This document shows positions 6,798 to 53,527 of a stretch of 64,000 bases of DNA, piece by piece. A model generated the notes under the pieces. It was not told the origin of the DNA and ran no database searches. It saw only the letters and a list, made by a program, of their open reading frames with translations. The position numbers were made by a program, and so were the translations under genes. Position 1 is the stretch's first letter. Every line of letters starts with the position of its first letter. The DNA comes from Patescibacteria group bacterium (lineage in GTDB: Bacteria; Patescibacteriota; Microgenomatia; 2-02-FULL-39-11): contig JAMCUI010000009.1 in the NCBI GenBank assembly GCA_023379265.1, positions 252,908 through 316,907 on the forward strand. The letters are read 5' to 3'.

Positions 6798-6830
6798 ACT
6801 TGATATTTTGATTAGGTGTTTAGAGTAAAA

Positions 6831-8510: not shown

Positions 8511-8515
8511 ACAGT

Positions 8516-12790: not shown

Positions 12791-12794
12791 TATA

Positions 12795-16084: not shown

Positions 16085-16086
16085 AC

Positions 16087-29233: not shown

Positions 29234-30187
<954 letters not shown>

Positions 30188-30199
30188 AATTTTGTATTT

Positions 30200-31222: not shown

Positions 31223-31231
31223 CTTTCCCCT

Positions 31232-31259
31232 TTTACACGACCACCGGTTTTTATATACT
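31232..31259 (+). promoter_or_regulatory. Candidate sigma70-like promoter
   Basis: TTTACA (31232-31237), a 16-nt spacer, then TATACT (31254-31259), in the gap between the stop at 31222 and the ATG at 31279. Confidence 0.35.
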
Positions 31260-31278
31260 TACGTTATTCCATTTGCAT

Positions 31279-32934: not shown

Positions 32935-32955
32935 TTATATCCGGAGGAGGAGATA

Positions 32956-34236: not shown

Positions 34237-34265
34237 GGCAATTACTTATAGAAATTAATTTCCAG

Positions 34266-34973: not shown

Positions 34974-34986
34974 ACGCTTATTGATT

Positions 34987-36045
34987 TCAAAAAGTAATTA
35001 TTTTATTTTTTAAGCCAAGTTTTTTTATATCTTTTAGAATTTCCTTCTTAAAGCGGAATGAGGAGACGAGTATCGGTTCTTTGTAATTCTCTAGATTTTC
35101 TGGCGGGATTATATCAATTCCTTTTAATTTTTTTCCTTGAAGATTTGTATTCCTATCTGCTAATTTAATAGTTTTTTGGGCAAGATTAGTGGTTGAAAGT
35201 AAGCGTTCGGTAAGAGATCCTGCACCCCAAACAATTATTCTTTCAGGAGCGGCATCAATAACCCGGTTTATCCTATCCATTTTTGATTGTGATAATTGGA
35301 TATACTTGACCATAGAATTTCTTACGCCTCCATCTTTTTGCCACACTGAATAGATAGCCTTCCCGTCTGAAGATACATACAACGGAAAAAATTCATACAT
35401 TAGAGAATGAAGTGAGGATTTGCCAAAAAAATTGATATGTTCCAGTGAAAATTCTCCAAAAGGTTCTTCGAAATTTCTGTAAAAATTATCTGCATCAGGT
35501 ACGCATATGAATATTTTCCCTCCATCATTTATAAGACTGCCCAGTATGTGTATGGCTAAAGTGACTTTATCCAGATGTTCAAGAACGGCCGAAAGAATAA
35601 GGAAGTCATATTTTTTAGTGCCTGATTTCAGGTTGAACAGATCATTTGTTTCTACAGTAATGCCGTATTTCTTTTTTGCCATTTCTTTGCAGCGGGGAGC
35701 GGGGTCGACTCCGGAAAGGTTTTTGAAACCGTCTGTTTTGAGGAGATAAAGGAGATGTCCGGTTGAGCAGCCTATGTCCATGATGCGGTCTGATTTGTTT
35801 ATAAATTGTTCAATTATTTTAACGCAGTCTTTATGCAACTGGAAGTCCCGCGTGTCTTCATATTTTGACATTTTTTCATAATATTTGGCATAGTAAGTCT
35901 GTCTTGGGGAATTATTTACAAAAACAAATCCGCACCTGTTACATAAGGCAATATTATGTATTAGACCACCAACAAATTTCTGCGTAAACAATACGGTATT
36001 ATTTCTGCTGGTACAGATAGGACATGGTCTAACAGTCTGTCTCAT
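34987..36045 (-). CDS. NDP-hexose C-methyltransferase family protein (TylC3/EvaC-like): Zn-ribbon + class I SAM MTase + C-methyltransferase C-terminal domain
   Basis: N-terminal 'CPIC...CNRCGF' four-Cys ribbon. 'IMDIGCSTGHLLYLL...LSGVDPAPRCKEMAKKKYGI' SAM fold. C-terminal 'IIVWGAGSLTERLL...ADRNTNLQGKKLKGIDIIPPENL' resembles the Methyltransf_14 domain. Confidence 0.6.
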   Translation of the reverse strand: MRQTVRPCPICTSRNNTVLFTQKFVGGLIHNIALCNRCGFVFVNNSPRQTYYAKYYEKMSKYEDTRDFQLHKDCVKIIEQFINKSDRIMDIGCSTGHLLYLLKTDGFKNLSGVDPAPRCKEMAKKKYGITVETNDLFNLKSGTKKYDFLILSAVLEHLDKVTLAIHILGSLINDGGKIFICVPDADNFYRNFEEPFGEFSLEHINFFGKSSLHSLMYEFFPLYVSSDGKAIYSVWQKDGGVRNSMVKYIQLSQSKMDRINRVIDAAPERIIVWGAGSLTERLLSTTNLAQKTIKLADRNTNLQGKKLKGIDIIPPENLENYKEPILVSSFRFKKEILKDIKKLGLKNKIITF

Positions 36046-36977
36046 TTATTCTTGTTTCCAATAATTTTATCGATGATATAAGTCGGCCTGGCTTTGGTTT
36101 CTTCCACTATTACCTGTATATATTTGCCTATTATACTGATGGCCAAAAGCTGTATTCCTCCAAAAAAGACGATTGAAACTAATATGGTGACAGCACCCTT
36201 TATTGGGTTGCCGTAAATAATACTTATGAGGATATATAAGATAATAAAAAGAAATGACAAGATTACCAATATGAATCCGAAATAAGCCATCAGATCCAAT
36301 AGTAGGTATGAAAATCCAAATACACCCCTTTCAGCATGCTTAAAGTAATCGAGTATGTTATAAGAACTTTTACCTTTTTTTCTTTTGGGCCGGTCGTACA
36401 AGACATAAGCCGTATCAAATCCTACCCATGCCCTGAGTCCTCTGAAAAATCTGTATTTTTCTGGTAATGATTTGATAGCCTGCTGCACCTTTTTATCCAT
36501 AAGTCCATATCCGCTGGCGTTTACCGGAATTTCGATATTTGATATGAGCTTAAAAATTTTGTAGAAAAGCTTTCTGAAAAATATGGTGATAAAATAGTCA
36601 TCAATCTTTTTATACACTCCAACAACAACCTGGTAACCTTTTTCCCATCTTTTAATAAATTCCTTGATGAGATCCGGAGGGTCTTGAAGGTCTGCAGCAA
36701 AGCCGATTATTGCCTCACCTGTAGCCTGATCATATCCCGCCTGAGCAGAAGCTTCCGCGCCGAAATTTCGTGAAAGGAATATTCCTGTAACCCTTCTATC
36801 TTTTCTGACTATTTTGGAGATTATGTCCCTGGAGTTGTCGCTGCTGCCATTATCCACAAAAACAAATTCATAAGAATATTTGGGAATCTGCTTTGTTACT
36901 CTCAATAGGGTTTTATAAGCATTTTCCAAATTTAATTCTTCGTTGAAGCAGGGGATGACAAAAGAAATTTTCTTCAT
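36042..36977 (-). CDS. Membrane-anchored polyprenyl-phosphate glycosyltransferase (GtrB/ArnC-like GT2 with two C-terminal TM helices)
   Basis: 'ISFVIPCFNEELNL', 'FVFVDNGSSDNS', 'FAADLQDPPDLI' and two C-terminal hydrophobic helices ('FILVILSFLFIILYILISII' and 'VTILVSIVFFGGIQLLAISIIG'). Confidence 0.7.
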   Translation of the reverse strand: MKKISFVIPCFNEELNLENAYKTLLRVTKQIPKYSYEFVFVDNGSSDNSRDIISKIVRKDRRVTGIFLSRNFGAEASAQAGYDQATGEAIIGFAADLQDPPDLIKEFIKRWEKGYQVVVGVYKKIDDYFITIFFRKLFYKIFKLISNIEIPVNASGYGLMDKKVQQAIKSLPEKYRFFRGLRAWVGFDTAYVLYDRPKRKKGKSSYNILDYFKHAERGVFGFSYLLLDLMAYFGFILVILSFLFIILYILISIIYGNPIKGAVTILVSIVFFGGIQLLAISIIGKYIQVIVEETKARPTYIIDKIIGNKNK

Positions 36978-36990
36978 ACGAGGTAAAAAT

Positions 36991-37809
36991 TTATTTTATG
37001 AGATTTCGGATTCTTTTTACTGCCGTCTTAAAACCAGCAAAACCGTCCGTATATCCAAGCCAGATTTCAGGGACGATCATTCCTTTATATTTTTTTAATT
37101 TCTCAAAGATTGGTTTGAAATTTATTTCCCCATCGCCAATTTGCACACCCTCGCCATCCTCACCTGTTGCATCTGCGATGTGAAGATGAGCCATATTCTG
37201 GATAAAAATCTCAAATTGAGCCATAAAATCCTTTTTTGCATAATTACAATACAATTTGGAGTGAGAAATGTCGTAGCAGATTTTTCTTTTTGTAGTTTTG
37301 CAAAACTCACCGATTTCCTCACCATCCATAAATATATTCGAGTTCCATTGCCCACCGAAATACCAGGGAAGAGGAGGCAGATTTTCTACCAGAATTTCAG
37401 AATTTTCGGTTCGTAAGAGAGATAGACTCTTTATGAGCGTTTCCATCCTGTAAATGTTATTCTTGGGTATATCTTTTTCATATGACATGCCTCCGGGATG
37501 CAAGATAAAAATATTTCTTTCATTAGTGAAATAGCTGAAAAATTTTTCGCTTTTAGAAATTATATTTTGCAGAATATCAAGTGATTCATTTAGAGGTAAT
37601 ACCTGATTCTCCGGTTTAATGTTTGAGATGTCTATCAAGTGTCCGCTCCAAAATTCGGGGAGATGGATTATGGCAGGAATAGGATATTTTATTTTTGGGG
37701 AAAAAGGGTAATCTGCATCTTTGTCAGAGAATTGGAATTCCACAAATTCTGGATCAAGTTCCATGACTTGGTCAAAATCTGAAAATCTGGTTTTCAAACC
37801 TATTTTCAT
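36991..37809 (-). CDS. Xylose isomerase-like TIM-barrel protein (sugar phosphate isomerase/epimerase family)
   Basis: 'NMAHLHIADATGEDGEG' (metal-binding H-x-H-x-x-D type) and 'MIVPEIWLGY'. 272 aa. Confidence 0.5.
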   Translation of the reverse strand: MKIGLKTRFSDFDQVMELDPEFVEFQFSDKDADYPFSPKIKYPIPAIIHLPEFWSGHLIDISNIKPENQVLPLNESLDILQNIISKSEKFFSYFTNERNIFILHPGGMSYEKDIPKNNIYRMETLIKSLSLLRTENSEILVENLPPLPWYFGGQWNSNIFMDGEEIGEFCKTTKRKICYDISHSKLYCNYAKKDFMAQFEIFIQNMAHLHIADATGEDGEGVQIGDGEINFKPIFEKLKKYKGMIVPEIWLGYTDGFAGFKTAVKRIRNLIK

Positions 37810-37815
37810 ATCTAA

Positions 37816-38862
37816 TCATTGAATATCGCTATGGATGAAATAATCATTTTTAGCTATATTTCTTTTTGTTTTTTTACCTATAAGCTTATCAATGAGCTGG
37901 GGACTGAGACCTTTACCCGGGCTTTTTACATCAATCATTCTGTGAGTAATTACTTCTCCTGCCTTTATTGGGACTGCGGCCACCAGACTTTTGCCAAAGA
38001 CTTCCCTAGTCAATATTTCCCCTCTGGCTATAGTTCTTATGCCGTTTCCTATTGCCACTTCTGCGACTCGAATTCTGTCCACCATTTTCTTTAACCCTTC
38101 GGGCATGATAGATAAATTATGATCGGGTCCGTCCATAGAGCGGTCAAGCGTAAAATGCTTCTCAATAATGTTTGCTCCCAATGCTACTGCACAGACTGCA
38201 ACAGTGATTCCTCTTTCATGTCCAGAGTAACCTACCGGTACTTTATACGTTTCTTTTAAGACATTAATCATCTTTAAGTTAACATCCTTGAAATTGGCCG
38301 GGTAAGTACTTACGCAATGCATAAGTGCGAATTTAGCTTTGTTTTTGTTGAGAAATTTTACCGTATAGTCTATTTCTGACGGATTTGACATACCTGTTGA
38401 AAGTATTATAGGTTTTTTAGTTTTAATAATTCGATGAATTAATGGTATATTTGTTAGATCTCCAGAGGCGATTTTATATAGAGGAACTTGAAGGGATTCT
38501 AAAAATTCTACGCTTTCCAAATCAAATGGTGTCGCAAAAAAAATAATCCCTATTTCGTCACAGTACTTTTTCAATTCTATATATTCACTTTTATCAAGTT
38601 CATATTTCTTAAATATGGAAAATAGATATACTGTTGATTGACTATCCTGGTTGGGATCGTTGTATACATCTTCTTTGTATATCGCCTTCAAATCCCTTTT
38701 TTGAAACTTTACCGCATCAGCGCCGCTGTCTTTAGCCAGTTTTATCATTTTCTTAGCCAGCGAAAGATTACCGTTATGGTTTAAGCCTATTTCTGCCACT
38801 ACAAATGTAGGATGCCCTTCACCTATCAGTCTTCCGTTTATATTCAGAGTACGGTCATTCAT
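37816..38862 (-). CDS. NeuB-family nonulosonic acid (sialic/pseudaminic/legionaminic-type) synthase with C-terminal SAF domain
   Basis: 'GHPTFVVAEIGLNHNGNLSLAKKMIKLAKDSGADAVKFQKR', 'LMHCVSTYPA' and 'GYSGHERG', plus a C-terminal antifreeze-like domain 'VAAVPIKAGEVIT'. Confidence 0.8.
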   Translation of the reverse strand: MNDRTLNINGRLIGEGHPTFVVAEIGLNHNGNLSLAKKMIKLAKDSGADAVKFQKRDLKAIYKEDVYNDPNQDSQSTVYLFSIFKKYELDKSEYIELKKYCDEIGIIFFATPFDLESVEFLESLQVPLYKIASGDLTNIPLIHRIIKTKKPIILSTGMSNPSEIDYTVKFLNKNKAKFALMHCVSTYPANFKDVNLKMINVLKETYKVPVGYSGHERGITVAVCAVALGANIIEKHFTLDRSMDGPDHNLSIMPEGLKKMVDRIRVAEVAIGNGIRTIARGEILTREVFGKSLVAAVPIKAGEVITHRMIDVKSPGKGLSPQLIDKLIGKKTKRNIAKNDYFIHSDIQ

Positions 38863-38940
38863 AAAAAGTTATTATACATTTTATTTTTTCTTATGACCAG
38901 CTGGCTAATTAAAAACCGATTGTACTGTTACTCTTACACT

Positions 38941-39828
38941 TTATGGATTAAGGTTCTTTTTTTTGAAAATAGATTTGTTATCTAAATAATAACGGTACAG
39001 TTGATCAATTGCTGATGTGAAAGGAGTAAATTTGAAACCTGATAATTCAGACAGTAATCTCTGATTATTACATGTATATTCCATATTATATCCCTGTTTT
39101 AAAATCTTTATGGGATGAGGATTATGTGTAGTTTTTTTAACTATCTCAGCCAGCGAGATTAAATCAATTTTTTCGCCTTTTCCGGCATTGTAGTGAGTAT
39201 ATTTCATGTTGTGAATAAGACAATATTCCACAATTTTTACCAGATCGTCAATGTAAATATAATCGAAAAAGACATTCTGTCTTATAACAACTGGTAAACC
39301 CAGAATTGACCGGCAGATAGCCTGGGAAATAAATCTTCTGGTATAATCCTCGTATTTTCCATAAACTCCAAAAAGTCTCAATACTACCGCATTGTCTGTT
39401 TTCTTCATAATTCTGGAAATGGTATATTTCAGTAGTCCATAATCATCTTTTGGAAGCGATAGACCGCTTTCCTTTTCAGATACATTGATAATTGGTTTTG
39501 ATTTATCGTATTCCGCTCCTGATCCGAAAACTATCACTTTGGTATCAGGATGCCTTTGTTCAAGAAGATTGTAGAAAATAGTCAAATTTTTTCCCAACAT
39601 ATCAGAAGAAAATACTCTTTTATCAGATCCTACATATAAGGCTGCATGAATTATGGCGTCGGGATTGTGTTCTTTCAAATATTCTTTGACTTTTTTCCTG
39701 TCAAGAAGATCTAGTTGCGAGTGTGATGGCGATATGGTGGAGAATTTATGTTTCAATTGTTCTGCAAGGTTATGCCCGATAAAGCCGTTTGCGCCCGTAA
39801 TCAGAATTTTTAAGTTTCTTTTATTCAT
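38941..39828 (-). CDS. NAD(P)-dependent sugar-nucleotide epimerase/reductase (RfbJ/RfbS-size; possible CDP-4-keto-dideoxyhexose reductase)
   Basis: 'KILITGANGFIGHNLAEQL' Rossmann motif. 295 aa. 'HAALYVGS'. Confidence 0.55.
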   Translation of the reverse strand: MNKRNLKILITGANGFIGHNLAEQLKHKFSTISPSHSQLDLLDRKKVKEYLKEHNPDAIIHAALYVGSDKRVFSSDMLGKNLTIFYNLLEQRHPDTKVIVFGSGAEYDKSKPIINVSEKESGLSLPKDDYGLLKYTISRIMKKTDNAVVLRLFGVYGKYEDYTRRFISQAICRSILGLPVVIRQNVFFDYIYIDDLVKIVEYCLIHNMKYTHYNAGKGEKIDLISLAEIVKKTTHNPHPIKILKQGYNMEYTCNNQRLLSELSGFKFTPFTSAIDQLYRYYLDNKSIFKKKNLNP

Positions 39829-39831
39829 ATC

Positions 39832-41013
39832 TCAGACGGCAATGCAGATGGTATCTACAAGTTCATTTGAATAATGTCTAACAAAAAGTTTATATGAAGG
39901 ATTAAGTTTTTTAATAAGAAGTATAAGTTTCCAAAGATCAGCGGCATGGTGGTAAATGGAAATAATAAGTTTAGGTTTTGTTTGTCTGATTATTTTTTTT
40001 GCACCTAACAGCGCTTCCCTTTCAACTCCTTCTATATCCATTTTAATAATAGTAGGTTTTGGTTTATCTCGGAAGAAAAAATCTAATGATGATAGTCTAA
40101 TAGACTTTGTTTTTCCGGCGTTTCCCGCAGCGTGATTATTTGATAAATTTTTCTTAATAATTCGTGAGTCAACTGATGAATTCTCACTAAAATCTATTGT
40201 GCCTTCTTTATAAAACACACCTCTTTTTATTGGAATTATTCTTTTGTGATCAATTTTCCTGGAAATTTTTTGAAGTTTTATATAGTTTGCAGTATCAGGC
40301 TCAAAGGAGTAAATTTTCATGAATTTGTTTTTTACTGTTTTACAAAAACTAAGAACGGTATCACCGTCAAAGGCACCGCAGTCAGCCAGAATTTCCTGAG
40401 AATTTAATTTTAATATACTTTCGTCAAAATAAGTCTTTTTTGACGATTGTGCTAACTTTATATATTTTTTATCCAGTGATAACCTGAATTTGATTAGATT
40501 CTCAAAAATTTTCTTTGAGTTGCTTTCCGTCAGTATTTGTTCAGTTTGCAATATGTCTATTAAGTTTCGCTTGGAAAATAAAGAGTTAAACGTATTTTCA
40601 TATTCTGATGAGATAAATATATCAGGATACAGAATATTTAGATAACCCAGAGGATAAATATACTTAAAACCTGCCTTTTTAAGAAGAGAATAAATTTCAG
40701 ATTCATACATCAGGCTGGCAACAAGAATCGGTGTGGCAAGATACAGTTTTTTGGCTGTGACAAACGAAATGATTTTTGCTTCGCCAATTTTCCTGTCATG
40801 GAGTTTTGGATTGTTATCGACTATCGCTGAAACCTTGATATTTTTTGCCTGGAGATTTTCTACAAATATTTTTCCCATTCTGGCTGCACCAAACACGACA
40901 CAGGGGATATTCCTATTGCATATTAATTCCCTTGGAGGAAAGTGTTCTTGAAGCTGTGAAAGATAGTAATTTTTATTCTTTTCCAATAAATATTTAAGGC
41001 TATTTTTTGTCAT
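39832..41013 (-). CDS. FkbM-family SAM-dependent methyltransferase with N-terminal Rossmann-like domain
   Basis: 'ILADCGAFDGDTVLSF', 'YSFEPDTANY' and 'TIIKMDIEGVEREALLGAKKII' FkbM signature. The N-terminal 'PCVVFGAARMGKI' domain is extra. Confidence 0.65.
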   Translation of the reverse strand: MTKNSLKYLLEKNKNYYLSQLQEHFPPRELICNRNIPCVVFGAARMGKIFVENLQAKNIKVSAIVDNNPKLHDRKIGEAKIISFVTAKKLYLATPILVASLMYESEIYSLLKKAGFKYIYPLGYLNILYPDIFISSEYENTFNSLFSKRNLIDILQTEQILTESNSKKIFENLIKFRLSLDKKYIKLAQSSKKTYFDESILKLNSQEILADCGAFDGDTVLSFCKTVKNKFMKIYSFEPDTANYIKLQKISRKIDHKRIIPIKRGVFYKEGTIDFSENSSVDSRIIKKNLSNNHAAGNAGKTKSIRLSSLDFFFRDKPKPTIIKMDIEGVEREALLGAKKIIRQTKPKLIISIYHHAADLWKLILLIKKLNPSYKLFVRHYSNELVDTICIAV

Positions 41014-42814
41014 AAGAAAGTGGCTTGGCTATCATATTTTTGAAAAAAATTTCCCTTGGCAGATAAGGATACATATCCTCAAGCGGTTTTGAAATCATAC
41101 TGCCGTCTGGTAAAACTTCAGAACCGATTCTGGGTATAATTTCAACAGAAGGCGCCATGTTTACACGGCAAAGTACCGGACCTTTGTGTTCTAGAACTTT
41201 TTTTATACCTCTATGTAAATCGTTATGATTTTTTATTTCGATAAAGTGCATTCCGTAAGCGTAAGCAATTTTTGAAAGGTTAGGTATAACTACTCCTGAG
41301 TTGGCATCTGAGGCAAAAAACCTCTGGCCTGCAAATTTTTTTTGAGTATTTCTTATGGATAAATAACCCTTATTGTCATAAACAAAAATCTTTAGTGGTA
41401 GTTCGTAAGTGATGAGAGTCTGGAGTTCATGAATATTAAACTGTAGTGAACCGTCACCCACAATCACAATAACTGGTTTTTTACCGGAGGCGATACTGGC
41501 GCCGATACCTGAAGGTAGTTCATAACCCATCGGGCCGCAGCCGATATTGGCTAGGAATCTTTGGTTTTTTTTCAGTCTAGCCATAAGGAAGGCGGTGGCT
41601 GAAGTGACACCGCTGCAGGTAGTTAAAATATCTCCTTCCTTAAAATAAGAAGATAGTGTATGCATAAAAAAGTAGGGGTTGACATATTTATCGCCATCTT
41701 TTAGGTATTGCGGAAGAATTTTTGGAAAGAGCGTTGTCCACCTTTTACACTTGGTTACCCAAACATCATACTCTGGTAATTTTGATTTTTCAGATTGTTG
41801 GATTAATTCTTCGATAAAAACTTTTGCATCCGCTTCTACTTTCATATATGGATTGACTGTTTTTTTATTCAGTTCATTTGCATCAATATTTACAAAAATA
41901 ATCTTTGCTTCTCTAGCAAAAGCCTGATAATTAAAACCGGTGGTTTTGAAGTTTAACCTGGCGCCAATACTGAGAACTAAATCACTATTTTGAATTATAA
42001 AATTTGCGGTTCTGTCCCCGATTATGCCGGGGTTTCCGAAATACAAAGGATATTCTTCATACATCAGGTCATTGGCGCACGAGGCCGTCAATACCGGTAT
42101 TTTTAGTATATTTACCAATTTTAGAAATGACTTGTAAGCTCCAGAAATCCTAATTCCGTTTCCAGCCAGGATGACTGGCCGGTTGGATTTTTGGAGTAAT
42201 TTTAATATTTCGTTGATAGAGTCAGAGATACTTTTTGAAGTGGTTCGATTAGTCTCTAATTCTTCAGGATCAAATTTTACCATCGATTTTTCCTCTATCT
42301 GGTGCGCCTGGATATCCAACGGAACATCAATCCAAACGGGTCCTGGGCGGCCTGTTGTGGCAAGATAAATTGCTTTTTCCAGATGATAGCGGATGCTTTG
42401 CGGATCTGTAATTCTTACAGCATATTTTGTAACGGGTTTCACGATATCAGTGATATTCAGTTCCTGTTCACCAAGCTGGCGCAAATCTGAGCCTTCCGCG
42501 GAAATTTCTGTCCTGACCTGACCGGATATATAAAGTGCCGGGACTGAATCCTGCCATTGGCAGACGATTCCAGTAAGTGAGTTACTGCCTCCGGGACCTC
42601 CCGTGACTACACAGACACCCAGTTTTCCTGTAATCTTGGAGTAAGCTTCAGCAGCCATGGCAGCTGCCTGTTCGTGGAAGGTGCAATAGTATTTTATTTT
42701 TTTACTTCTGCCGAATGAATCATTCAGATGCATTGCCAAACCGCCGGAGATCATAAAAATATCTCTGACGCCGTAATTTTCCAGGAATCGGACAATATAG
42801 TCACTGAGTTTCAT
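41000..42814 (-). CDS. ThDP-dependent acetolactate-synthase-like enzyme (YerE-like sugar-nucleotide C-branching carboligase candidate)
   Basis: 604 aa. N-terminal Pyr domain 'GGLAMHL...HEQAAAMAAEAY...GVCVVTGGPGGSNSLTG'. C-terminal ThDP-binding 'VIVIVGDGSLQFNIHELQTLITYELPLKIFVYDNKGY' (GDG...N motif). Adjacent to the ddh genes and an SDR. ThDP-enzyme family confidence is about 0.85; the specific role about 0.5. Confidence 0.6.
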   Translation of the reverse strand: MKLSDYIVRFLENYGVRDIFMISGGLAMHLNDSFGRSKKIKYYCTFHEQAAAMAAEAYSKITGKLGVCVVTGGPGGSNSLTGIVCQWQDSVPALYISGQVRTEISAEGSDLRQLGEQELNITDIVKPVTKYAVRITDPQSIRYHLEKAIYLATTGRPGPVWIDVPLDIQAHQIEEKSMVKFDPEELETNRTTSKSISDSINEILKLLQKSNRPVILAGNGIRISGAYKSFLKLVNILKIPVLTASCANDLMYEEYPLYFGNPGIIGDRTANFIIQNSDLVLSIGARLNFKTTGFNYQAFAREAKIIFVNIDANELNKKTVNPYMKVEADAKVFIEELIQQSEKSKLPEYDVWVTKCKRWTTLFPKILPQYLKDGDKYVNPYFFMHTLSSYFKEGDILTTCSGVTSATAFLMARLKKNQRFLANIGCGPMGYELPSGIGASIASGKKPVIVIVGDGSLQFNIHELQTLITYELPLKIFVYDNKGYLSIRNTQKKFAGQRFFASDANSGVVIPNLSKIAYAYGMHFIEIKNHNDLHRGIKKVLEHKGPVLCRVNMAPSVEIIPRIGSEVLPDGSMISKPLEDMYPYLPREIFFKNMIAKPLSYDKK

Positions 42815-42898
42815 AGTATATAGAACTTATTTCAAAACCCTAGCTCGCCGGATTTGAGTTATTATCCGTTAGTAAACGGTTTAGTTTTACAACAGCTA

Positions 42899-43696
42899 CT
42901 AGTGGATAGTCCAGCCGCCGTCAACAAGAAGATTGTGTCCGGTAATGTATCCCGAGATGTCCGAAGCCAAGAATAGAGTTGGTCCGACTAAATCATCTGG
43001 ACTTGCCATTCTACCCAATGGAGTAAGTTTTTCATAATTTTTGATAAAGTCGGGATTTTGATTGGCTTTTACTCCGCCAGGACTTATACAATTGACTCTG
43101 ATGTCGTATTTCCCAAAATATGAAGCGAAATATTTTGTCATCATATTTACTCCACCTTTGATAAGAGCATAAGGGGAAGGTGAGGTCATTTCCGTATTGT
43201 TATAAATGGAGAATGTCGGTGCTACCGTACCATATATGGAACTGAAATTTATAATGTTTCCTCCTTGTGGAGATTTATTTTTCATATAAACGGCAATTTT
43301 TTGAGTACAGTGGTAATAACCGCCCAGATGCATGGCAAGATTTTTCTCTACAGATGAGTAGGGCATTTCTTCAACGTTTTTTGACCAATCCTCGGTTTTG
43401 GGCCAGCTGCAGTTGATAAAAACCTCAATTTTTCCCATTTTCTGGCAGGAAAATTCAATTAATTCATCAATTGATTTTTCTTTGGTCGTATCGAATTTAT
43501 AAAATATCACTTTATTTTTTGAAGATGTATTCACCTTTTCCAGAAATTTCTGATCAGTATTTACGTCGGCAATGATAAGTTTAGATCCAGAAGAGGAAAA
43601 TCCTTTAGCGAGAACTTTACCGATAAGTCCCATTCCGCCCACAATGAGTATAGGTTTATCCTGCAGATCTGAGAAATTATATTTATTTTTATCCAT
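42899..43696 (-). CDS. Short-chain dehydrogenase/reductase (SDR), YerF-like reductase candidate
   Basis: 'ILIVGGMGLIGKVLAKGF' (TGxxxGxG-like), 'NFSSIYG' and 'SPYALIKGG' (YxxxK). 265 aa. Confidence 0.7.
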   Translation of the reverse strand: MDKNKYNFSDLQDKPILIVGGMGLIGKVLAKGFSSSGSKLIIADVNTDQKFLEKVNTSSKNKVIFYKFDTTKEKSIDELIEFSCQKMGKIEVFINCSWPKTEDWSKNVEEMPYSSVEKNLAMHLGGYYHCTQKIAVYMKNKSPQGGNIINFSSIYGTVAPTFSIYNNTEMTSPSPYALIKGGVNMMTKYFASYFGKYDIRVNCISPGGVKANQNPDFIKNYEKLTPLGRMASPDDLVGPTLFLASDISGYITGHNLLVDGGWTIH

Positions 43697-43733
43697 AAAT
43701 ATTTGATTTACATTCTATTTAATTATAATCTAT

Positions 43734-44744
43734 TCAAACTATTACACTATCCATATCGATTATTCTTTTATACTTAATCGAATCATGTGTTGCTAAAAGA
43801 AGTCTCAAGTTGGCAATTCCATCTTCAAGAGATATGGATGGATGCTTTTTATTTTTGACCTTATCAATAAATTCTTTCACTTCATCATAAAACATATTAT
43901 TTCTATTAAAACCTTTTGAATAGTCGATTACTTGTTTTCTTGGCTGATCTTCTTTTTTGTTTTTGTTGAAAATATATAATTTATTGGCAAAAAAATCTAG
44001 TTCTATACGGCCCTTATCTCCAACTATTTCCCAATATCTTTTAGGCGGGTCAAGAATATAGTCAAGATGTATTTCGGCGAGAGTGTTACTACTATATTTC
44101 ATAAGTATTTCGACATTGTCTTCAGTATTTACTCCTGTAAGTGATTTTTTACCGTTCAGAGCAATTACACACGTGGGTAGACCGAAATACCAATAAAGTA
44201 TATCCAGATCATGACAGAGAGTGTTAATCGGACCTCCGCCCAATTCTTTATTTGCCGCATAGCTTTTCTTGTAATTTTCCCAAGGATGCCAGTTTGGTAG
44301 AAACTCGCCCCAGATTACGCGTGAATATACGGGATTTCCTATAATTTTATTCTTAAGAATTTTTTTGATTCTTATAAAGGCCGGGTGATAACGGTGCATA
44401 AAGCCAATTTGGACAATTAGTTCTTTTTGTCTGACAATTTCCTGCAGTTTTTTTACTCCTTCTGTGCTATCTGATAAAGGTTTTTCTATAAAAAGGTGAC
44501 AATCTGCCTGGGCCAGTTTATTTGCCAGGTCTATATGGAGTGAGGAAGGGTTAGTGATAAAAGCAACGTCGGGTTTTTGCTTTATAGCATCTCCGAAATC
44601 CGAAAAGGTTTTAATCTCTTGTCTGACAAATCTTAACGGTTGGGTAGTGGTGCGGTAGGCGATAATATCCTTTTCGCCCATTTTTAATAGATTGTTTAAA
44701 TGTTGTTGTCCGATTGATCCTAGACCGCAAAAAAGAAATTTCAT
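43734..44744 (-). CDS. Gfo/Idh/MocA-family NAD(P)-dependent oxidoreductase
   Basis: 'MKFLFCGLGSIGQQHLNNL' and 'LFIEKPLSDSTEGVKKL' (EKP motif). 336 aa. Confidence 0.7.
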   Translation of the reverse strand: MKFLFCGLGSIGQQHLNNLLKMGEKDIIAYRTTTQPLRFVRQEIKTFSDFGDAIKQKPDVAFITNPSSLHIDLANKLAQADCHLFIEKPLSDSTEGVKKLQEIVRQKELIVQIGFMHRYHPAFIRIKKILKNKIIGNPVYSRVIWGEFLPNWHPWENYKKSYAANKELGGGPINTLCHDLDILYWYFGLPTCVIALNGKKSLTGVNTEDNVEILMKYSSNTLAEIHLDYILDPPKRYWEIVGDKGRIELDFFANKLYIFNKNKKEDQPRKQVIDYSKGFNRNNMFYDEVKEFIDKVKNKKHPSISLEDGIANLRLLLATHDSIKYKRIIDMDSVIV

Positions 44745-45716
44745 TTATTTTGAGTAATAATTGGTATACCAGTTATAGATATTTTTCATGGTATTTTTGA
44801 TCGTATACTCCGGTTTCCAGCCGACTGTTTTTCTGATTTTAGTCCAATCAAGCGACTGGTAAGGAATCTCGTTTTTGGCAGTATTTATAATCTTATATTT
44901 TATCTTCATATCCAAAACTTTTTCCAAAAGTCCAATGAGATCTAACACTGAAAACGAATCATCTGAGCCGAAATTGTAGGCTTCGCCTTTGGTCTTTGCT
45001 ATATTTTGCGCCAAAAGCAGATAGCCCCTGACGACATCTTTAACATATAAATAATCCCTTATATATTTGCCATTGCTTCTAATAAGAAATGTTTGTTTCT
45101 TAACTATTGCTTCCATTATTCCGGGAATTATCCTGGAAAAATGCATATCTCCCTCACCGTAAATATTGCCAAAGCGAGTGATTGTTGTTGGTAAACCGTA
45201 TGTTTTGTAATAAGAATAGGAGATCAGGTCCGCAGATGATTTTGAAACCTCATAGGGATGGTCGCCACGGAGGGGATCGGATTCAGAATATTTTAATTGA
45301 GAATTGAGAATTTTACCGTATGCCTTGTCGGAAGACGCAACGATAATAGCATGAGTTTTACCAAATAGCCTTGTTGCTTCAAGGAGATTTATTGTACCGA
45401 CTATGTTTGAGTAAAGTGTGGTTTTGGGGTTTTTATAAGCGATATCTACTAAAGGTTGGGCGGCTAGATGAAAGATGCAGTCTGGTTTGACATTGAAAAC
45501 CATTTTTTCTACTGCTTTATAACCTGACAGTTCAATCCTGATGATCTTTGTTTTTCGTTCAAGACCCTGAGTAGCAAAATAGGAATTGGTTGGTATATTA
45601 TGGTGAGTGGTGACGGTGATGTCTGCTTTTGTTTTTGCCAATTCTTCAGCTAGATGCGATCCGACAAATCCAGTCGCTCCGGTTATAAGTATGTTTTTAT
45701 AGTTGAAATTTGTCAT
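44745..45716 (-). CDS. ddhB: CDP-glucose 4,6-dehydratase
   Basis: 'KNILITGATGFVGSHL', 'FHLAAQPLVDIAYKNPKTTLYSNIVGTINLLEA', 'SSDKAYG' and 'PYEVSKSSADL' parallel RfbG. The ATG at 45716 is 1 nt after the ddhA stop; the track ORF extends further. Confidence 0.8.
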   Translation of the reverse strand: MTNFNYKNILITGATGFVGSHLAEELAKTKADITVTTHHNIPTNSYFATQGLERKTKIIRIELSGYKAVEKMVFNVKPDCIFHLAAQPLVDIAYKNPKTTLYSNIVGTINLLEATRLFGKTHAIIVASSDKAYGKILNSQLKYSESDPLRGDHPYEVSKSSADLISYSYYKTYGLPTTITRFGNIYGEGDMHFSRIIPGIMEAIVKKQTFLIRSNGKYIRDYLYVKDVVRGYLLLAQNIAKTKGEAYNFGSDDSFSVLDLIGLLEKVLDMKIKYKIINTAKNEIPYQSLDWTKIRKTVGWKPEYTIKNTMKNIYNWYTNYYSK

Positions 45717-45717
45717 C

Positions 45718-46497
45718 TCACTTCCATACCTTCCACGGCGGATTTTCGCTGTTCCAGATGCCGTTGAGCTCGTCATATTCCTTGTTAGTGTCGACAGCAT
45801 ACCAGAAGCCGGTATGCTTGTAGATGGAAAGCTGAGAAATTTTGGCCAGTCGGGTGAGGGCCGCATGTTCCAACTCTGCCGGTTTCTGGTACTTAAAATA
45901 ATCCCTCTTGAAGACCATATATCCGCCGTTTGCCCAGTCGGACATATAAGGTTTTTCCTTAAACTCCACGATTTTGCTGTCGTTTCCTACTTTTACCACT
46001 CCAAACTTAAATTTTGGATGGATTCCAGTGATGGTTCCTATCGTGTTTTGTTTCTTATGGAACTGCACCAGTTTTCCGATATCAAGGTTCGTCACCCCGT
46101 CTCCATAAGTCACCATAAAATTTTTATCACTTTTAGGGATATAACTTTCACAAAGAAGAATCCTTTCTCCCGGAAGGGTATCCATACCCGTATCTACAAA
46201 AGTGATTTTGAAATCGTCTATTTCTTTTCTGTGTTCCCAGTGATAGGCGGTTTTGTGGGTTTTTGTCTCGAGTGTAAAATCTGTGGTAAAAGCTTTCTGG
46301 TTGAGGAAAAAATCCTTGATATAGTTGGCCTTATAACCTAAAGCCAAAATAAATTCGTTAAAGCCGTAATGGGCGTATATTTTCATAATATGCCAGATTA
46401 TTGGTTTTCCGCCAATATTTATCATCGGTTTTGGTTTGTATTCAGTTTCCTCTTTGAGTCTGGTACCTGTACCACCGCATAAAATTATTGTTTTCAT
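45718..46497 (-). CDS. ddhA: Glucose-1-phosphate cytidylyltransferase
   Basis: 'MKTIILCGGTGTRLKEETEYKPKPMINIGGKPIIWHIMKIYAHYGFNEFILALGYK' is near-identical in pattern to RfbF '[42 protein letters not shown]'. Confidence 0.85.
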   Translation of the reverse strand: MKTIILCGGTGTRLKEETEYKPKPMINIGGKPIIWHIMKIYAHYGFNEFILALGYKANYIKDFFLNQKAFTTDFTLETKTHKTAYHWEHRKEIDDFKITFVDTGMDTLPGERILLCESYIPKSDKNFMVTYGDGVTNLDIGKLVQFHKKQNTIGTITGIHPKFKFGVVKVGNDSKIVEFKEKPYMSDWANGGYMVFKRDYFKYQKPAELEHAALTRLAKISQLSIYKHTGFWYAVDTNKEYDELNGIWNSENPPWKVWK

Positions 46498-46659
46498 ACA
46501 GCCTGGATTATAGCAGAACTGGTTGTAAGTTGTTAGTTTTGGGTTGTGAGTGGAGAATGGCTAAATTTTATTATTTAAGAATTAGTAAATTTGTTCATTG
46601 ATCAAAAATTAGAAATTATAATTGAAAATTATACTTGGGCATTATGAGTAGTTCTATAG

Positions 46660-46665
46660 TATAAT
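46660..46665 (+). promoter_or_regulatory. Candidate -10 element (TATAAT) in the divergent intergenic region
   Basis: TATAAT at 46660-46665 within 'tctatagtataattatg', 12 nt upstream of the ATG at 46678. The 180-nt AT-rich spacer separates the minus-strand ddhA start from the plus-strand carbamoyltransferase start. Confidence 0.3.
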
Positions 46666-46677
46666 TATGAAGTTTTT

Positions 46678-48393
46678 ATGGGTACTGACGGTAAAATGCA
46701 TATTACTGTTTTGGGCATCCATGACGGGCACAATAGTGGAGCTGCTTTAGTGCGAGACGGTAAGGTTCTCTCGGCCATATCGGAGGAGAGACTGAATAAT
46801 ATAAAGAATTATTCCGGAGTGCCAGTACTTTCCATTGCCAAGGTTTTTGAAATTGCCGAAATACCTCCTGAGGAAACCGATCTTATCGCAATAGGATGTT
46901 TCGTCCGTGTGGGGCCACCCTATGCTGATATAAATTGGTTAGGTAGAATTCAGGTAGAATTGGCACCATATCTTCATTCACACTTATTTGCTAAAACATA
47001 TGTGAAATTGCTGCACAAATTCAGACAAACAGGTCGATTGAAGGATTTATTTGAAAGTTTGGGAATAGGGGATAAAAAAATCATATTTATAGAACACCAT
47101 CTAAGTCATGCAGCATGTGCTTATTACGGGTCAGGTTTCAAGGATGAGACACTGATTCTCACTCTTGACGGGTCAGGGGATGGGCTATCAGCGACTGTCT
47201 CAGTAGGAAAAGACTGTAGAATCAAAAGGATTGCCGAGACGACATTCTATGACAGTTTGTCAAACAATATATACAGTGAAATCACAGGGTACTTGGGGAT
47301 GAAGAGGTGGGAACATGAATACAAGGTGATGGGTCTTGCTCCATATGGTAGAGATGACGGTTTGGTAGATGAATTTAAAAAAATTGTCAGGATAAATCCG
47401 GCAAAAACTCTGGAGTTTCAGAATATTTTCGGCGCCTATTTATACGATGTTACCAAAAACTTGGTTCCAATTTTAGCCGGGCGGCGATTTGACAATATTG
47501 CTTGGGCGACTCAGAAATATTTTGAAGATTTGGTTTCCCAGTGGGTAAAAAATGCGATAGATCAGACCGGTGTTCATAATGTAGTCTGTAGTGGCGGGTC
47601 ATTTCTGAACGTTAAGGCGAATAAGGTGATAAGGGAATTGCCTGAAGTGAAAAAAGTCTTTTTTTACCCGGCCGCTGATGATGGCGGGACTCCGGCGGGG
47701 GCTGCCATTGAAGGGTATGTCAGGTTGTGCAGGGAAAAGAAAATAAAACCGGTGGTTGAGCCGATTGGTGATTTATATTTTGGTCAGCAATATTCTGACG
47801 AAAAGATAAGCGCTATTTTGAAAAAATCAAATTGGAAAAAAAAGGCAGTAAATTTAGGAAAAGGGATAGCAAAAGAGGTTGCTAGATTACTAGGTAAAGG
47901 AAAGATTGTCGCCAGGTTTGCCGGACGGGATGAGTGGGGTCCAAGAGCATTGGGAAATCATAGTATATTGGCAGATCCCCGCGATCTGCGTGTAATTTCA
48001 AAACTGAATTTTGCTATCAAACAGAGAGATTTCTGGATGCCTTTTGCCGCGTCCATTCTGGAGGAGGATGCTGGAGAATATTTGAAGGATTATAGGGGAC
48101 AAGCAAGATATATGATTGAAGCTTTCGATACAAAAGAAAAAGCAGCTGAAATTACGGCAGCTCTCCATCCTTACGACCTGACATGCCGGCCTCAGACAGT
48201 AAACGATTGGAATCCCGGTTACAGAAGTATATTGACGGAATTTAAAAAACTGACGGGAGTCTCAGGAATTCTAAATACTTCATTTAACCTGCACGGGTTT
48301 CCAATGGTGGGTACTCCTGACGTTGCTCTTTCCACTTTTGAAAATTCAGGATTGGATGCGCTTATTCTTGAAAATTTCTTAATTACTAGATGA
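46678..48393 (+). CDS. NodU/CmcH-family carbamoyltransferase
   Basis: 'ITVLGIHDGHNSGAALVRDGKVLSAISEERLNNIK' N-terminal signature. 571 aa; 'EHHLSHAACAYY'. Confidence 0.7.
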   Translation: MGTDGKMHITVLGIHDGHNSGAALVRDGKVLSAISEERLNNIKNYSGVPVLSIAKVFEIAEIPPEETDLIAIGCFVRVGPPYADINWLGRIQVELAPYLHSHLFAKTYVKLLHKFRQTGRLKDLFESLGIGDKKIIFIEHHLSHAACAYYGSGFKDETLILTLDGSGDGLSATVSVGKDCRIKRIAETTFYDSLSNNIYSEITGYLGMKRWEHEYKVMGLAPYGRDDGLVDEFKKIVRINPAKTLEFQNIFGAYLYDVTKNLVPILAGRRFDNIAWATQKYFEDLVSQWVKNAIDQTGVHNVVCSGGSFLNVKANKVIRELPEVKKVFFYPAADDGGTPAGAAIEGYVRLCREKKIKPVVEPIGDLYFGQQYSDEKISAILKKSNWKKKAVNLGKGIAKEVARLLGKGKIVARFAGRDEWGPRALGNHSILADPRDLRVISKLNFAIKQRDFWMPFAASILEEDAGEYLKDYRGQARYMIEAFDTKEKAAEITAALHPYDLTCRPQTVNDWNPGYRSILTEFKKLTGVSGILNTSFNLHGFPMVGTPDVALSTFENSGLDALILENFLITR

Positions 48394-49577
48394 AAATTCT
48401 TCAATTAGTCCCCTACTTTTATCCAGCTCTTTCAGTTGGAGGAAGCGCGACAGCGGTCTATAGTCTCTCCGGAGAGTTGGTCAAGCGTGGTCACAAAGTA
48501 ACCGTATATACGACTGATGTTAACCATAGCATGCCGGAAAAGAAAATGCTGGTAAATAAAAGAGTCAGGATTGGTGGTTTTGATGTTTATTATTTCAGAA
48601 ATATATCAAATAGTCTTGCGTTTAGAAACCATATTTTTTTCCCTCCCTATTTTTTCACTGAGATAATCAGACACATTACCGATTTTGATATTGTCCATAT
48701 GCATGAAATTTACACCCTTATGCATCTCTGGACAGCTTTTTTGGCAAGAAAACAGGGGATTCCGTATATTTTGACAGGACACGGTACGGCAGTGTTGGGT
48801 GAAAAAGAAGGTAATATGGGAAGAAAAAAGTTGTTTTACTCTTTTGGAGGAAAAAAACTTCTATTGGGTGCATCAAGGATTGTCGCTTTGACTGAGAAGG
48901 AAAAAAGGTCTTACCTTAAACTGGGAGTGGAAGAAAAAAATATTAGGGTTATCCCAAACGGTATAAACCCAGAATTATTCCACAAACTGCCTAAAAAAGA
49001 AGTGTTTAGAAATAAAATGCGACTAGTGAAGGATGATTGTGTCATACTTTATCTAGGAAGACTTCATGCAAAAAAAGGAATTGAGCTTTTGATAAAATCC
49101 TTAAAACTCCTAAAGAATGAGCATTTGTTAGTAAAGTTGGTGATTGCGGGCCCAGTGGAGCAGGAGGATTATCTTAAAAGGCTAAAAACCATTATAGAGA
49201 AAGAAGGTCTTTCCCAAAACGTGATTTTTACAGGCAACCTGACAGGAAAAGAAAAAATGGAAGCTTATTCCAGTGCGGATATATTTGCTCTGACATCGTA
49301 CTCCGAAGGACTGCCCGTTTCGGTTCTGGAGGCCGCTGTCTGCGGACTTCCACTTCTTTTATCCGAAAATTCAGGGGTGCCGATGATAGAAAAATATAAC
49401 GCCGGGGTATTAGTGAAAAATGATTTAGACAGTATTGTAAAAGGTCTGGAAAGAATTTTGAAAAAGGATAATTTCCGCAGATATTACGGAGATAATGCCA
49501 AAAAGATGGCGCAAAAAGAATATTCTATTTCCCGGACAGCTTTTATGATTGAAAAAGTTTATAAAGAGTTTGTGTAA
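48390..49577 (+). CDS. GT4-family glycosyltransferase
   Basis: 'MKILQLVPYFYPALSVGGSATAVYSLSGEL' and 'SYSEGLPVSVLEAAVCGLPLLLSENSG'. ATGA overlap. Confidence 0.75.
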   Translation: MKILQLVPYFYPALSVGGSATAVYSLSGELVKRGHKVTVYTTDVNHSMPEKKMLVNKRVRIGGFDVYYFRNISNSLAFRNHIFFPPYFFTEIIRHITDFDIVHMHEIYTLMHLWTAFLARKQGIPYILTGHGTAVLGEKEGNMGRKKLFYSFGGKKLLLGASRIVALTEKEKRSYLKLGVEEKNIRVIPNGINPELFHKLPKKEVFRNKMRLVKDDCVILYLGRLHAKKGIELLIKSLKLLKNEHLLVKLVIAGPVEQEDYLKRLKTIIEKEGLSQNVIFTGNLTGKEKMEAYSSADIFALTSYSEGLPVSVLEAAVCGLPLLLSENSGVPMIEKYNAGVLVKNDLDSIVKGLERILKKDNFRRYYGDNAKKMAQKEYSISRTAFMIEKVYKEFV

Positions 49578-49579
49578 TT

Positions 49580-52689: not shown

Positions 52690-52699
52690 AAAGGAAAAG

Positions 52700-53524: not shown

Positions 53525-53527
53525 GAT

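Follow-up and report, generated by a model that had tools for sequence, protein, structure and literature searches.

In a 64-kb stretch of DNA (64,000 nucleotides, hereafter the window) from an uncultured Patescibacteria (Candidate Phyla Radiation, CPR) bacterium we analyzed a gene cluster that probably serves the biosynthesis of a branched sugar activated with cytidine diphosphate (CDP), using a listing of the open reading frames (ORFs) together with Pfam and NCBIfam scans. Five consecutive genes on the minus strand at 41000-46497, with gaps of 1, 0, 37 and 84 nt between them in the ORF listing, had been reported in a preliminary description of the sequence as ddhA, ddhB, a Gfo/Idh/MocA oxidoreductase, a short-chain dehydrogenase/reductase (SDR) and a 604-aa enzyme dependent on thiamine diphosphate (ThDP), and the ORF coordinates agree exactly with this order as well as with the 1-nt gap given for ddhA and ddhB. 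These five genes come first in an 11-gene operon that runs without strand change from 46497 to 34987 and contains six further genes beyond them, and a homologue of RfbH/DdhC (E1) is found at 32956-34206, 6.8 kb downstream of the ThDP gene. The genes are the following:

45718-46497, minus strand: rfbF/ddhA-like glucose-1-phosphate cytidylyltransferase, 259 aa, operon gene 1 (PF00483, TIGR02623)
44745-45716, minus strand: rfbG/ddhB-like CDP-glucose 4,6-dehydratase, 323 aa (TIGR02622, extended SDR)
43734-44744, minus strand: Gfo/Idh/MocA NAD(P) oxidoreductase, 336 aa (PF01408, PF02894)
42899-43696, minus strand: classical SDR, PRK09186/PtmA-like, 265 aa, candidate ketoreductase (adh_short_C2)
41000-42814, minus strand: YerE-like (JanthE-like) ThDP-dependent carboligase, 604 aa (PF02776, PF00205, PF02775)
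39832-41013, minus strand: FkbM-family methyltransferase, 393 aa (PF05050, TIGR01444)
38941-39828, minus strand: extended SDR of the NAD-dependent epimerase/dehydratase family, 295 aa (PF01370)
37816-38862, minus strand: NeuB-family synthase dependent on phosphoenolpyruvate (PEP), with SAF domain, 348 aa (PF03102, 306 bits)
36991-37809, minus strand: xylose-isomerase-like TIM-barrel protein, 272 aa (PF01261, 55.9 bits)
36042-36977, minus strand: GtrB/ArnC-like family 2 glycosyltransferase (GT2) for polyprenyl phosphate, 311 aa (PF00535, two C-terminal membrane helices)
34987-36045, minus strand: class I methyltransferase dependent on S-adenosylmethionine, with N-terminal Cys4 motif, 352 aa, last operon gene (Methyltransf_23/25/11)
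34266-34973, plus strand: GT2 separating rfbH from the operon, 235 aa as called by NCBI (PF00535, 75 bits)
32956-34206, minus strand: RfbH/DdhC (E1) CDP-4-keto-6-deoxyglucose 3-dehydrase dependent on pyridoxamine 5'-phosphate and [2Fe-2S], 416 aa (NF011936)

The FkbM gene overlaps the ThDP gene by 14 nt. For rfbG the longest ORF (44745-45866, 373 aa) overlaps rfbF by 149 nt, and the ATG at 45716, which gives 323 aa, is the start called by NCBI. The ORFs at 45703-46341 (plus strand) and 29689-30378 (minus strand) lie inside real genes on the opposite strand and are shadow ORFs. A scan of positions 32500-47000 gave no excess of promoter-like sites (60 versus 51±6.5 in shuffled sequence) or terminator-like sites (8 versus 11), and only one plausible promoter, a -10/-35 pair ahead of rfbF at 46536-46507, deserves mention.

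The ThDP enzyme shows significant Pfam matches to TPP_enzyme_N, TPP_enzyme_M and TPP_enzyme_C, and with TPP_enzyme_M the predicted central domain is present which the preliminary description had named as worth checking. The ThDP motif is intact as described before, with a spacing of 25 instead of 26 residues (GDG at 453-455, x25, N481), and E48 (HEQ) is the catalytic glutamic acid. The best PDB match by a wide margin is JanthE from Janthinobacterium sp. HH01 (8RPH, 416 bits, E = 1.8e-123, about 34% identity over 592 residues; further structures 8RPI and 8RPJ), followed by PpYerE with 247, plant acetohydroxyacid synthase (AHAS) with about 238 and E. coli IlvB with 223 bits. JanthE and the window enzyme have the three-domain layout and a C-terminal extension in common, the extension (approximately residues 565-596) aligning with JanthE while the alignments with PpYerE and AHAS already end at 563-565. 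The ThDP motif of JanthE is an unusual CDG, whereas the window enzyme has the canonical GDG. JanthE has been described as a YerE-like ketone-accepting carboligase (PMC12188165, PMC12247030); the 2-oxoacids it accepts range from C3 up to at least C6, and its physiological substrates are unknown (PMC12188165).

We reconstructed a neighbour-joining tree from E. coli IlvB, IlvI, Gcl and PoxB, A. thaliana AHAS, JanthE, PpYerE and 12 homologues, a simple method with few outgroups in which JanthE and PpYerE serve as the YerE-like references. The family of the window enzyme groups with JanthE at 100% bootstrap and both group with PpYerE at 99%, apart from AHAS, Gcl and PoxB. With NCBIfam the AHAS model TIGR00118 reaches 376.4 bits versus a cut-off of 538.35 and all PRK models for AHAS reach 240-336 bits versus cut-offs of 738-1084 (e.g. 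336 vs 976). No phosphonopyruvate-decarboxylase model (Ppd/ComDE) is present among the 25 matches listed, and two-domain decarboxylases of the phosphonopyruvate or sulfopyruvate type have no central domain. Superfamily and three domains are shared with the AHAS large subunit (IlvB/IlvI/IlvG; plant AHAS), but the window enzyme belongs to a separate clade and Pfam scans of the 64-kb window found neither an ACT-type small subunit nor any ilv gene, the neighbours of the ThDP gene being the SDR and the FkbM methyltransferase. Neither clustering with ilvB in the tree nor a link to phosphonopyruvate decarboxylase in the NCBIfam matches listed was seen, clustering with either having been named beforehand as evidence to the contrary, and the sequence data thus support the previous proposal that the enzyme belongs to the YerE-like carboligases and is not an acetolactate synthase of branched-chain amino acid biosynthesis. 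An identical ThDP protein has been deposited with a metagenome-assembled genome of Patescibacteria (CPR) origin (GCA_023487465.1) and bears 'thiamine pyrophosphate-binding protein' as its sole annotation.

The genes predicted to provide a 3,6-dideoxy-4-keto acceptor for this enzyme are present except for E3/DdhD. The rfbF product matches TIGR02623 (glucose-1-phosphate cytidylyltransferase) over its full length with 256.8 bits (E = 2e-76), the next family reaching 82 bits, and for rfbG, which carries the extended-SDR motifs GATGFVG and YEVSK, the best NCBIfam model is TIGR02622 (CDP-glucose 4,6-dehydratase, 213.1 bits vs a cut-off of 278.45). By its sequence the gene at 32956-34206 is unambiguously assigned as RfbH, with 635 bits to NF011936 (above the equivalog cut-off of 423) and 478 bits to the structure of Yersinia pseudotuberculosis E1 (3BCX/3BB8); its Schiff-base lysine is replaced by histidine (FYPAHQITMGEGG) and the Fe-S cysteine motif CWCDTGKDDTC is present.

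In order to compare gene neighbourhoods, 80 related loci from more than 12 phyla (L003-L082) were fetched. Counts out of 80 come from tblastn searches with the window proteins within 10 kb of the ThDP gene, while counts out of 81 include the window's own locus and come from a clustering of all neighbouring ORFs within 8 kb. RfbH accompanies the ThDP gene in 49/80 loci, rfbG in 48/80, rfbF in 44/80, the NeuB-like gene in 35/80, the 295-aa extended SDR in 18/80 and FkbM in 14/80, and the ranking obtained by ORF clustering resembles this one. The link between the ThDP gene and CDP-deoxyhexose genes is therefore stronger than originally claimed, as RfbH lies only 6.8 kb away in the window and the association of rfbF, rfbG, RfbH and ThDP genes recurs across phyla. 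Relatives whose ThDP enzyme is 58-64% identical possess the same approximately 12 genes in a shuffled order with the Gfo-SDR-ThDP-FkbM block and the NeuB/TIM-barrel pair intact. The block is kept in relatives with 58-67% ThDP identity (L088-L090, L093, L095), FkbM immediately follows the ThDP gene in L088-L090, and L008, L031 and L041 also have Gfo in the vicinity of their ThDP gene. A protein search gave 7788 proteins matching the ThDP enzyme at E<=1e-60, the closest non-self matches (50-67% identical) belonging to Patescibacteria, Margulisbacteria, Elusimicrobia, Syntrophaceae, Actinobacteria and others, and with one genome counted per species at least 598 species-representative genomes have a confirmed relative. 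Named isolates among the matches listed include Campylobacter concisus, Victivallis vadensis, Bradyrhizobium canariense and Xylanibacter muris. The idea that such a pathway would be rare outside Yersinia and its relatives can thus be abandoned.

Families found by ORF clustering include GtrB-like GT2 (39/81 loci), extended SDR and class I methyltransferases (18/81 each), classical SDR and FkbM (14/81 each), GtrA-like proteins (13/81), HpcH/HpaI aldolases (12/81), KdsC-like HAD phosphatases (8/81) and HMGL-like aldolases (7/81).

For the origin of the donor substrate the NeuB-like protein is of special interest. It scores 372.6 bits with the NeuB model (cut-off 399.65) and 283 bits with PseI (cut-off 340), and it is about equidistant (170-190 bits) from the solved NeuB, PseI and SpsE. 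The NeuB TIM barrel and the SAF domain are shared with the synthases for 2-keto-3-deoxynononic acid 9-phosphate (KDN-9-P), N-acetylneuraminic acid, pseudaminic acid and legionaminic acid, whereas the window protein remains below the NeuB and PseI cut-offs. In 34/81 loci a NeuB-like gene occurs at a distance of up to 8 kb from the ThDP gene, and when the window's own locus is set aside, 29/80 loci have one at up to 3 kb; in three separate ThDP subclades the two genes are direct neighbours. When the search was reversed and started from the NeuB-like protein, nine metagenomic loci with a NeuB of at least 50% identity were obtained; all five of them with enough flanking sequence (NeuB 63-67% identical) have a ThDP gene within 9 kb. 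In three of these five it is a ThDP gene of another subclade (41-42% identity), and Gfo and SDR are missing. The TIM-barrel gene lies directly downstream of NeuB in 8/8 of these nine loci having downstream sequence and also adjoins the NeuB homologue in L088 and L089. Among NeuB relatives of only 31-40% identity with flanking sequence a ThDP gene was present in 0 of 3, and tblastn detected the TIM-barrel gene in none of the 80 more distant loci. The single PDB match of the TIM-barrel protein is MJ1311 with 28.6 bits.

In the literature, the long 4-hydroxy-2-oxoacids used as donors by MMAR_2332 (caryophyllose) and ErwE (erwiniose) are attributed to HpcH/citrate-lyase-like and HMGL/BphI-like aldolases (PMC9306805). 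Neither the HpcH nor the HMGL family of pyruvate aldolases is represented in the window. The HpcH/HpaI (12 loci) and HMGL (7 loci) aldolases adjoin ThDP homologues elsewhere (e.g. L061 9614-10408 and L026 12565-14184) and exclude each other as well as NeuB-like genes. The overlap between the 34 loci with NeuB-like genes and the 19 loci with HpcH or HMGL aldolases is 0/81 (hypergeometric P = 4.6e-6 with phylogeny ignored), and this suggests three alternative donor-supply modules for one ThDP enzyme family. As the simplest reading of the gene context, the NeuB-family enzyme would fill the aldolase role and convert PEP and an aldehyde into a 4-hydroxy-2-oxoacid, the donor of the ThDP enzyme, and the TIM-barrel protein may supply or isomerise the NeuB substrate.

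One ThDP subclade shows the gene order RfbH, NeuB, KdsC-like phosphatase, ThDP, x, Gfo, SDR. In this KdsC-type subclade the NeuB-like proteins are mostly short (about 290-300 aa, too short for a SAF domain) and are followed by the KdsC-like HAD phosphatase and then by the ThDP enzyme, as in loci from Acidobacteriota, Margulisiibacteriota and Verrucomicrobiota (L008 9491-9991; L021 9425-9967; L030 9438-9998; L041 9325-9969; L073 9543-10004). The pairing of NeuB-like protein and KdsC-like phosphatase mirrors the synthase/phosphatase pairs for KDN-9-P, and the order NeuB-KdsC-ThDP hints at a phosphorylated aldose as substrate, comparable to the pathways via KDN-9-P or 3-deoxyoctulosonic acid 8-phosphate (KDO-8-P). 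The partner of NeuB thus differs between the window, which has the TIM-barrel isomerase-like protein, and the subclade-A loci with their KdsC-type phosphatase.

We propose, tentatively and well aware that the odds are slightly against it, that PEP-dependent synthases of the NeuB family represent a third, widespread and so far unreported 2-oxoacid donor supply for YerE-like enzymes beside HMGL- and HpcH-type aldolases, with a TIM-barrel partner in some lineages and a KdsC-like phosphatase in others. A link between NeuB and YerE is not mentioned in the accessible literature, the coverage of which does not extend to Krug et al. 2024, and literature searches on aurantose and on ilvB-like genes with rfbH returned nothing relevant. 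If true, undescribed CDP-3,6-dideoxyhexoses with long polyhydroxylated and methylated C-4 branches would be products of many uncultured lineages in over 12 phyla, CPR/Patescibacteria among them, and these sugars would reach the cell surface via a GtrB-type lipid carrier and GT-C transferases.

A nonulosonic-acid pathway appears unlikely for the window in view of the NeuB and PseI scores given above and because Pfam scans of nearly all large window ORFs revealed neither NeuA (the synthetase for CMP-nonulosonic acid; CTP_transf_3) nor a NeuC domain. The resemblance of the classical SDR to PtmA was considered and rejected as a sign of a legionaminic-acid pathway, its score being 197 versus a cut-off of 350 and NeuA, NeuC, LegC and LegH being missing.

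Three oxidoreductases of the operon might modify the branch. The best NCBIfam and PDB relatives of the Gfo/Idh/MocA protein are inositol 2-dehydrogenases at just 78-109 bits, and it is a candidate for redox chemistry on the side chain or on a donor precursor. The classical SDR (motifs GGMGLIG and YALIK) scores 250.3 bits with PRK09186 (cut-off 255) and had been regarded as the YerF-like reductase of the cluster; it stays a candidate for this role, for which the 295-aa extended SDR is as likely since it directly flanks the ThDP gene in many loci. The extended SDR (motifs GANGFIG and YGLLK) abuts the ThDP gene, for instance, in L012, L014, L015, L017, L052 and L063 and is its most frequent flanker among the oxidoreductases. 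We regard it as the best candidate for a YerF-like side-chain ketoreductase, or else for an epimerase/reductase acting at position 4 or 5. PDB searches with the Gfo protein, the two SDR and the TIM-barrel protein gave generic relatives only (inositol dehydrogenases, unnamed SDR and MJ1311). Of the other tailoring enzymes, the class I methyltransferase has a C2185-like_N domain on record, and the operon's GT2 (36042-36977) shows 241 bits to GtrB from Synechocystis (5EKP) and about 100 bits to ArnC.

From these data we consider it probable that this region forms the central part of an operon (46497-34987 plus rfbH) for the biosynthesis of a CDP-activated 3,6-dideoxy-4-C-branched hexose, whose branch would be longer and methylated as in caryophyllose or erwiniose and whose donor would be provided via the NeuB-family enzyme. 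According to this model RfbF would form CDP-glucose, RfbG would convert it into CDP-4-keto-6-deoxyglucose, and RfbH (E1), with electrons from a reductase other than E3, would remove the 3-hydroxy group resulting in CDP-4-keto-3,6-dideoxyglucose. The NeuB-family enzyme and its TIM-barrel partner would combine PEP with a small aldehyde or aldose to a 4-hydroxy-2-oxoacid, which the YerE-like ThDP enzyme would decarboxylate in order to add the acyl-anion equivalent to the C-4 ketone, leading to a tertiary alcohol with an acyl branch. The side chain might then be reduced or adjusted in a YerF-like manner by the extended SDR (295 aa), the classical SDR and the Gfo/Idh/MocA enzyme, and the sugar might be methylated by the FkbM and class I methyltransferases. 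Finally, the GtrB-like GT2 could move the sugar to polyprenyl phosphate, from which a GT-C/PMT_2 enzyme of the same gene island would use it outside the membrane. While the gene identities, the YerE-like clade and the conserved co-location follow from sequences and their comparison, we infer the chemistry of every step from gene content, and this applies also to the donor, the oxidoreductase responsible for the YerF-like reduction, the order of tailoring, the methylation sites, the lipid-carrier route and the acceptor glycan.

The biosynthesis of yersiniose A in Y. pseudotuberculosis O:VI (ddhA-D, yerE, yerF) follows the same logic, with CDP-4-keto-3,6-dideoxyglucose being formed by DdhA, DdhB and DdhC followed by ThDP-dependent branching at C-4 and ketoreduction (PMC9306805, PMC12247030), and in the tree PpYerE (PDB 5AHK) and the window enzyme are not separated by the AHAS/Gcl/PoxB split. 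Unlike the yersiniose A cluster, the window has no DdhD/E3 but additional genes for the NeuB-like protein, the TIM barrel, Gfo, two methyltransferases and the GtrB-like GT2. Of the yersiniose-like CDP sugar expected in the preliminary description, the YerE-like core with a branched CDP sugar is retained, while the two-carbon branch from pyruvate appears doubtful and a longer, modified branch is indicated because the NeuB-like protein with the TIM barrel, the two methyltransferases and the three oxidoreductases are conserved as a set in relatives. Long-branch clusters are known with ErwE/ErwF/ErwI/ErwJ (erwiniose, Pectobacterium atrosepticum), MMAR_2331/2332 (caryophyllose, Mycobacterium marinum) and MyGE/MygI (gastriose), and a 'unifying scheme' has been proposed for them in which a 4-hydroxy-2-oxoacid arises from a dedicated C-C-forming enzyme and is then attached to a CDP-keto sugar by a YerE-like enzyme, before the product is reduced and in some cases methylated (PMC9306805). 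For each of these roles one candidate is encoded in the window; whereas those clusters use a pyruvate aldolase, a PEP-dependent NeuB-family synthase appears, from its gene context, to occupy that niche here.

A number of points weigh against the long-branch pathway. Both RfbF (256.8 vs 300.25 bits) and RfbG stay below their equivalog cut-offs, their CDP specificity being presumed. Among the window ORFs scanned there is no Fer2/FNR-type protein as E3/DdhD, and a crude motif scan detected E3 within 8 kb of the ThDP gene in 0/81 loci; a non-clustered reductase may take its place. The identity of the ThDP enzyme to PpYerE (30%) is barely higher than to AHAS (27-29%), with the bit scores also close to each other (247 and about 238). 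The co-occurrence statistics ignore shared ancestry. No active-site signature predicting the donor length was found, as the alignment columns discriminating between NeuB-, aldolase- and no-donor-associated enzymes track the subclades only, and the residue numbers of the JanthE engineering paper failed to map onto the chain numbering. Furthermore, the NeuB-like protein scores nearly at the true NeuB cut-off and has a SAF domain, and a separate role in nonulosonic-acid biosynthesis is possible. JanthE and YpYerE accept pyruvate (PMC12247030, PMC12188165), which would allow a simple C2 branch.

The last two points would fit a plain yersiniose-type pathway, the alternative that survives best although we hold it to be rather unlikely, in which pyruvate would be the donor, the resulting two-carbon acetyl branch would be reduced by an SDR to a hydroxyethyl group, and the NeuB-like, TIM-barrel and other tailoring genes would serve another sugar of the same glycan. 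YpYerE as its founding precedent uses pyruvate, and 18 related loci in which the ThDP gene has 6 kb or more of sequence to either side contain neither aldolase nor NeuB; donor-less (pyruvate-type) clusters therefore exist in the family. This pathway would leave the NeuB-like gene in a window with neither NeuA nor a NeuC-type epimerase among nearly all large ORFs scanned with Pfam, and it has to face the facts that a ThDP gene invariably accompanies the close NeuB homologues, also where it is of another subclade (41-42% identity) and Gfo and SDR are missing, and that NeuB and the known donor aldolases are mutually exclusive.

Much less probable is a ThDP enzyme that acts on the NeuB product alone, as 2-oxoacid decarboxylase or aldehyde-aldehyde carboligase leading to a deoxy-aldose or acyloin, with the CDP-sugar genes as mere neighbours. 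The nearest characterised relatives JanthE and PpYerE are ketone-accepting carboligases, even if the predicted YerE-like enzymes MygE, RhopE and SpirE have no shown ketone acceptance in vitro (PMC12247030). The order of NeuB, KdsC-like phosphatase and ThDP genes in subclade A indeed resembles a self-contained ulosonic-acid module, but the linkage to rfbF, rfbG and RfbH spans subclades, including those without any NeuB. Moreover, glycan islands usually carry genes for dTDP-, UDP- and GDP-sugars, and it is the rare CDP/E1 set that is enriched here; this specific enrichment therefore favours a functional link with the ThDP gene. The chance that a bona fide ilvB-type AHAS or a phosphonopyruvate/sulfopyruvate decarboxylase has come to lie in a glycan locus is close to nil, as the enzyme is far below every AHAS equivalog cut-off, outside the AHAS clade, without small subunit or ilv gene in the window, equipped with the central TPP_enzyme_M domain and without a phosphonopyruvate-decarboxylase model among its 25 listed matches, even if AHAS models are its top NCBIfam matches by name (TIGR00118, 376 bits) and the NCBI and JGI pipelines call some homologues 'acetolactate synthase'.

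The general type of pathway is established and has previously been mined in silico, and the long-branch pathway proposed here extends this known biology by the NeuB-type donor supply, the lack of E3, the GtrB-type hand-off and the CPR host. Carbon-branched sugars, among them yersiniose, erwiniose and caryophyllose, count as rare antigenic determinants, and YerE-like enzymes attract interest as biocatalysts in the preparation of chiral tertiary alcohols. The JanthE-type subfamily is now linked to CDP-dideoxyhexose genes in hundreds of species from many phyla, and the gene context offers JanthE-like enzymes a candidate acceptor (CDP-4-keto-3,6-dideoxyglucose) as well as a candidate donor source (the products of NeuB-family enzymes). 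It also adds an elaborate sugar pathway to the surface-glycan island of a CPR bacterium with a reduced genome, a group whose cell-surface chemistry is hardly known. CPR bacteria are not known to have lipopolysaccharide (LPS), and if they lack it, the window product would not be an O-antigen sugar. Papers on the motility of Pseudomonas protegens Pf-5, the source of PpYerE, mention rfbH and rfbG (PMC11004494). Some YerE-type sugars might thus decorate flagellin and not LPS, with a possible bearing on the acceptor in the CPR host.

The rest of the window is a glycan island with many glycosyltransferases of families GT2, GT4 and GT10, tandem PMT_2/GT-C membrane proteins, YfhO, a carbamoyltransferase, an AsnB-like amidotransferase and an ABC transporter of the Wzm/Wzt type. 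On the plus strand at 6816-19316 seven consecutive ORFs of 537-586 aa are found with one interruption by an unassigned 289-aa ORF (8516-9385), and the five of them that were scanned match PMT_2/PMT (GT-C, ArnT-like) with 33-39 bits. More large membrane proteins are encoded nearby at 22580-24232, 26203-27399 and 31192-32934. Such an array of PMT_2 paralogues is unusually large for a reduced CPR genome, and its members are plausible users of polyprenyl-phosphate-linked sugars. The genes that diverge from the operon (46678-51532 and 52619-54817) encode a carbamoyltransferase of the NodU/CmcH type and two GT4 proteins with an AsnB-like glutamine amidotransferase between them, followed by a Wzm/Wzt-like exporter consisting of an ABC-2 membrane protein and an ABC ATPase of 429 aa. 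The glycan is probably carbamoylated or amidated and exported by the ABC-transporter route. Two extended SDR and a GT10-family (fucosyltransferase-like) protein at 29237-31222 and 57662-58792, the first of the two SDR resembling GDP-fucose synthase by eye, suggest a second deoxyhexose in the glycan.

Further genes were noticed in the clusters of relatives. In L088 (ThDP enzyme 64% identical) a split transketolase at 13878-15628 (Transketolase_N, then Transket_pyr/C) follows just downstream of the extended SDR and represents a second ThDP enzyme within one sugar cluster. The clusters of two relatives contain a gene for a protein of 136-138 aa with a faint Cupin_2 match (L088 7725-8141; L089 15886-16296), possibly an RmlC-like sugar epimerase/isomerase, of which no counterpart of similar size was seen in the window operon. 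A 3-dehydroquinate-synthase-like protein, possibly a sugar-phosphate cyclase, is encoded within 8 kb of the ThDP gene in 9/81 loci (e.g. L040 12504-13655).

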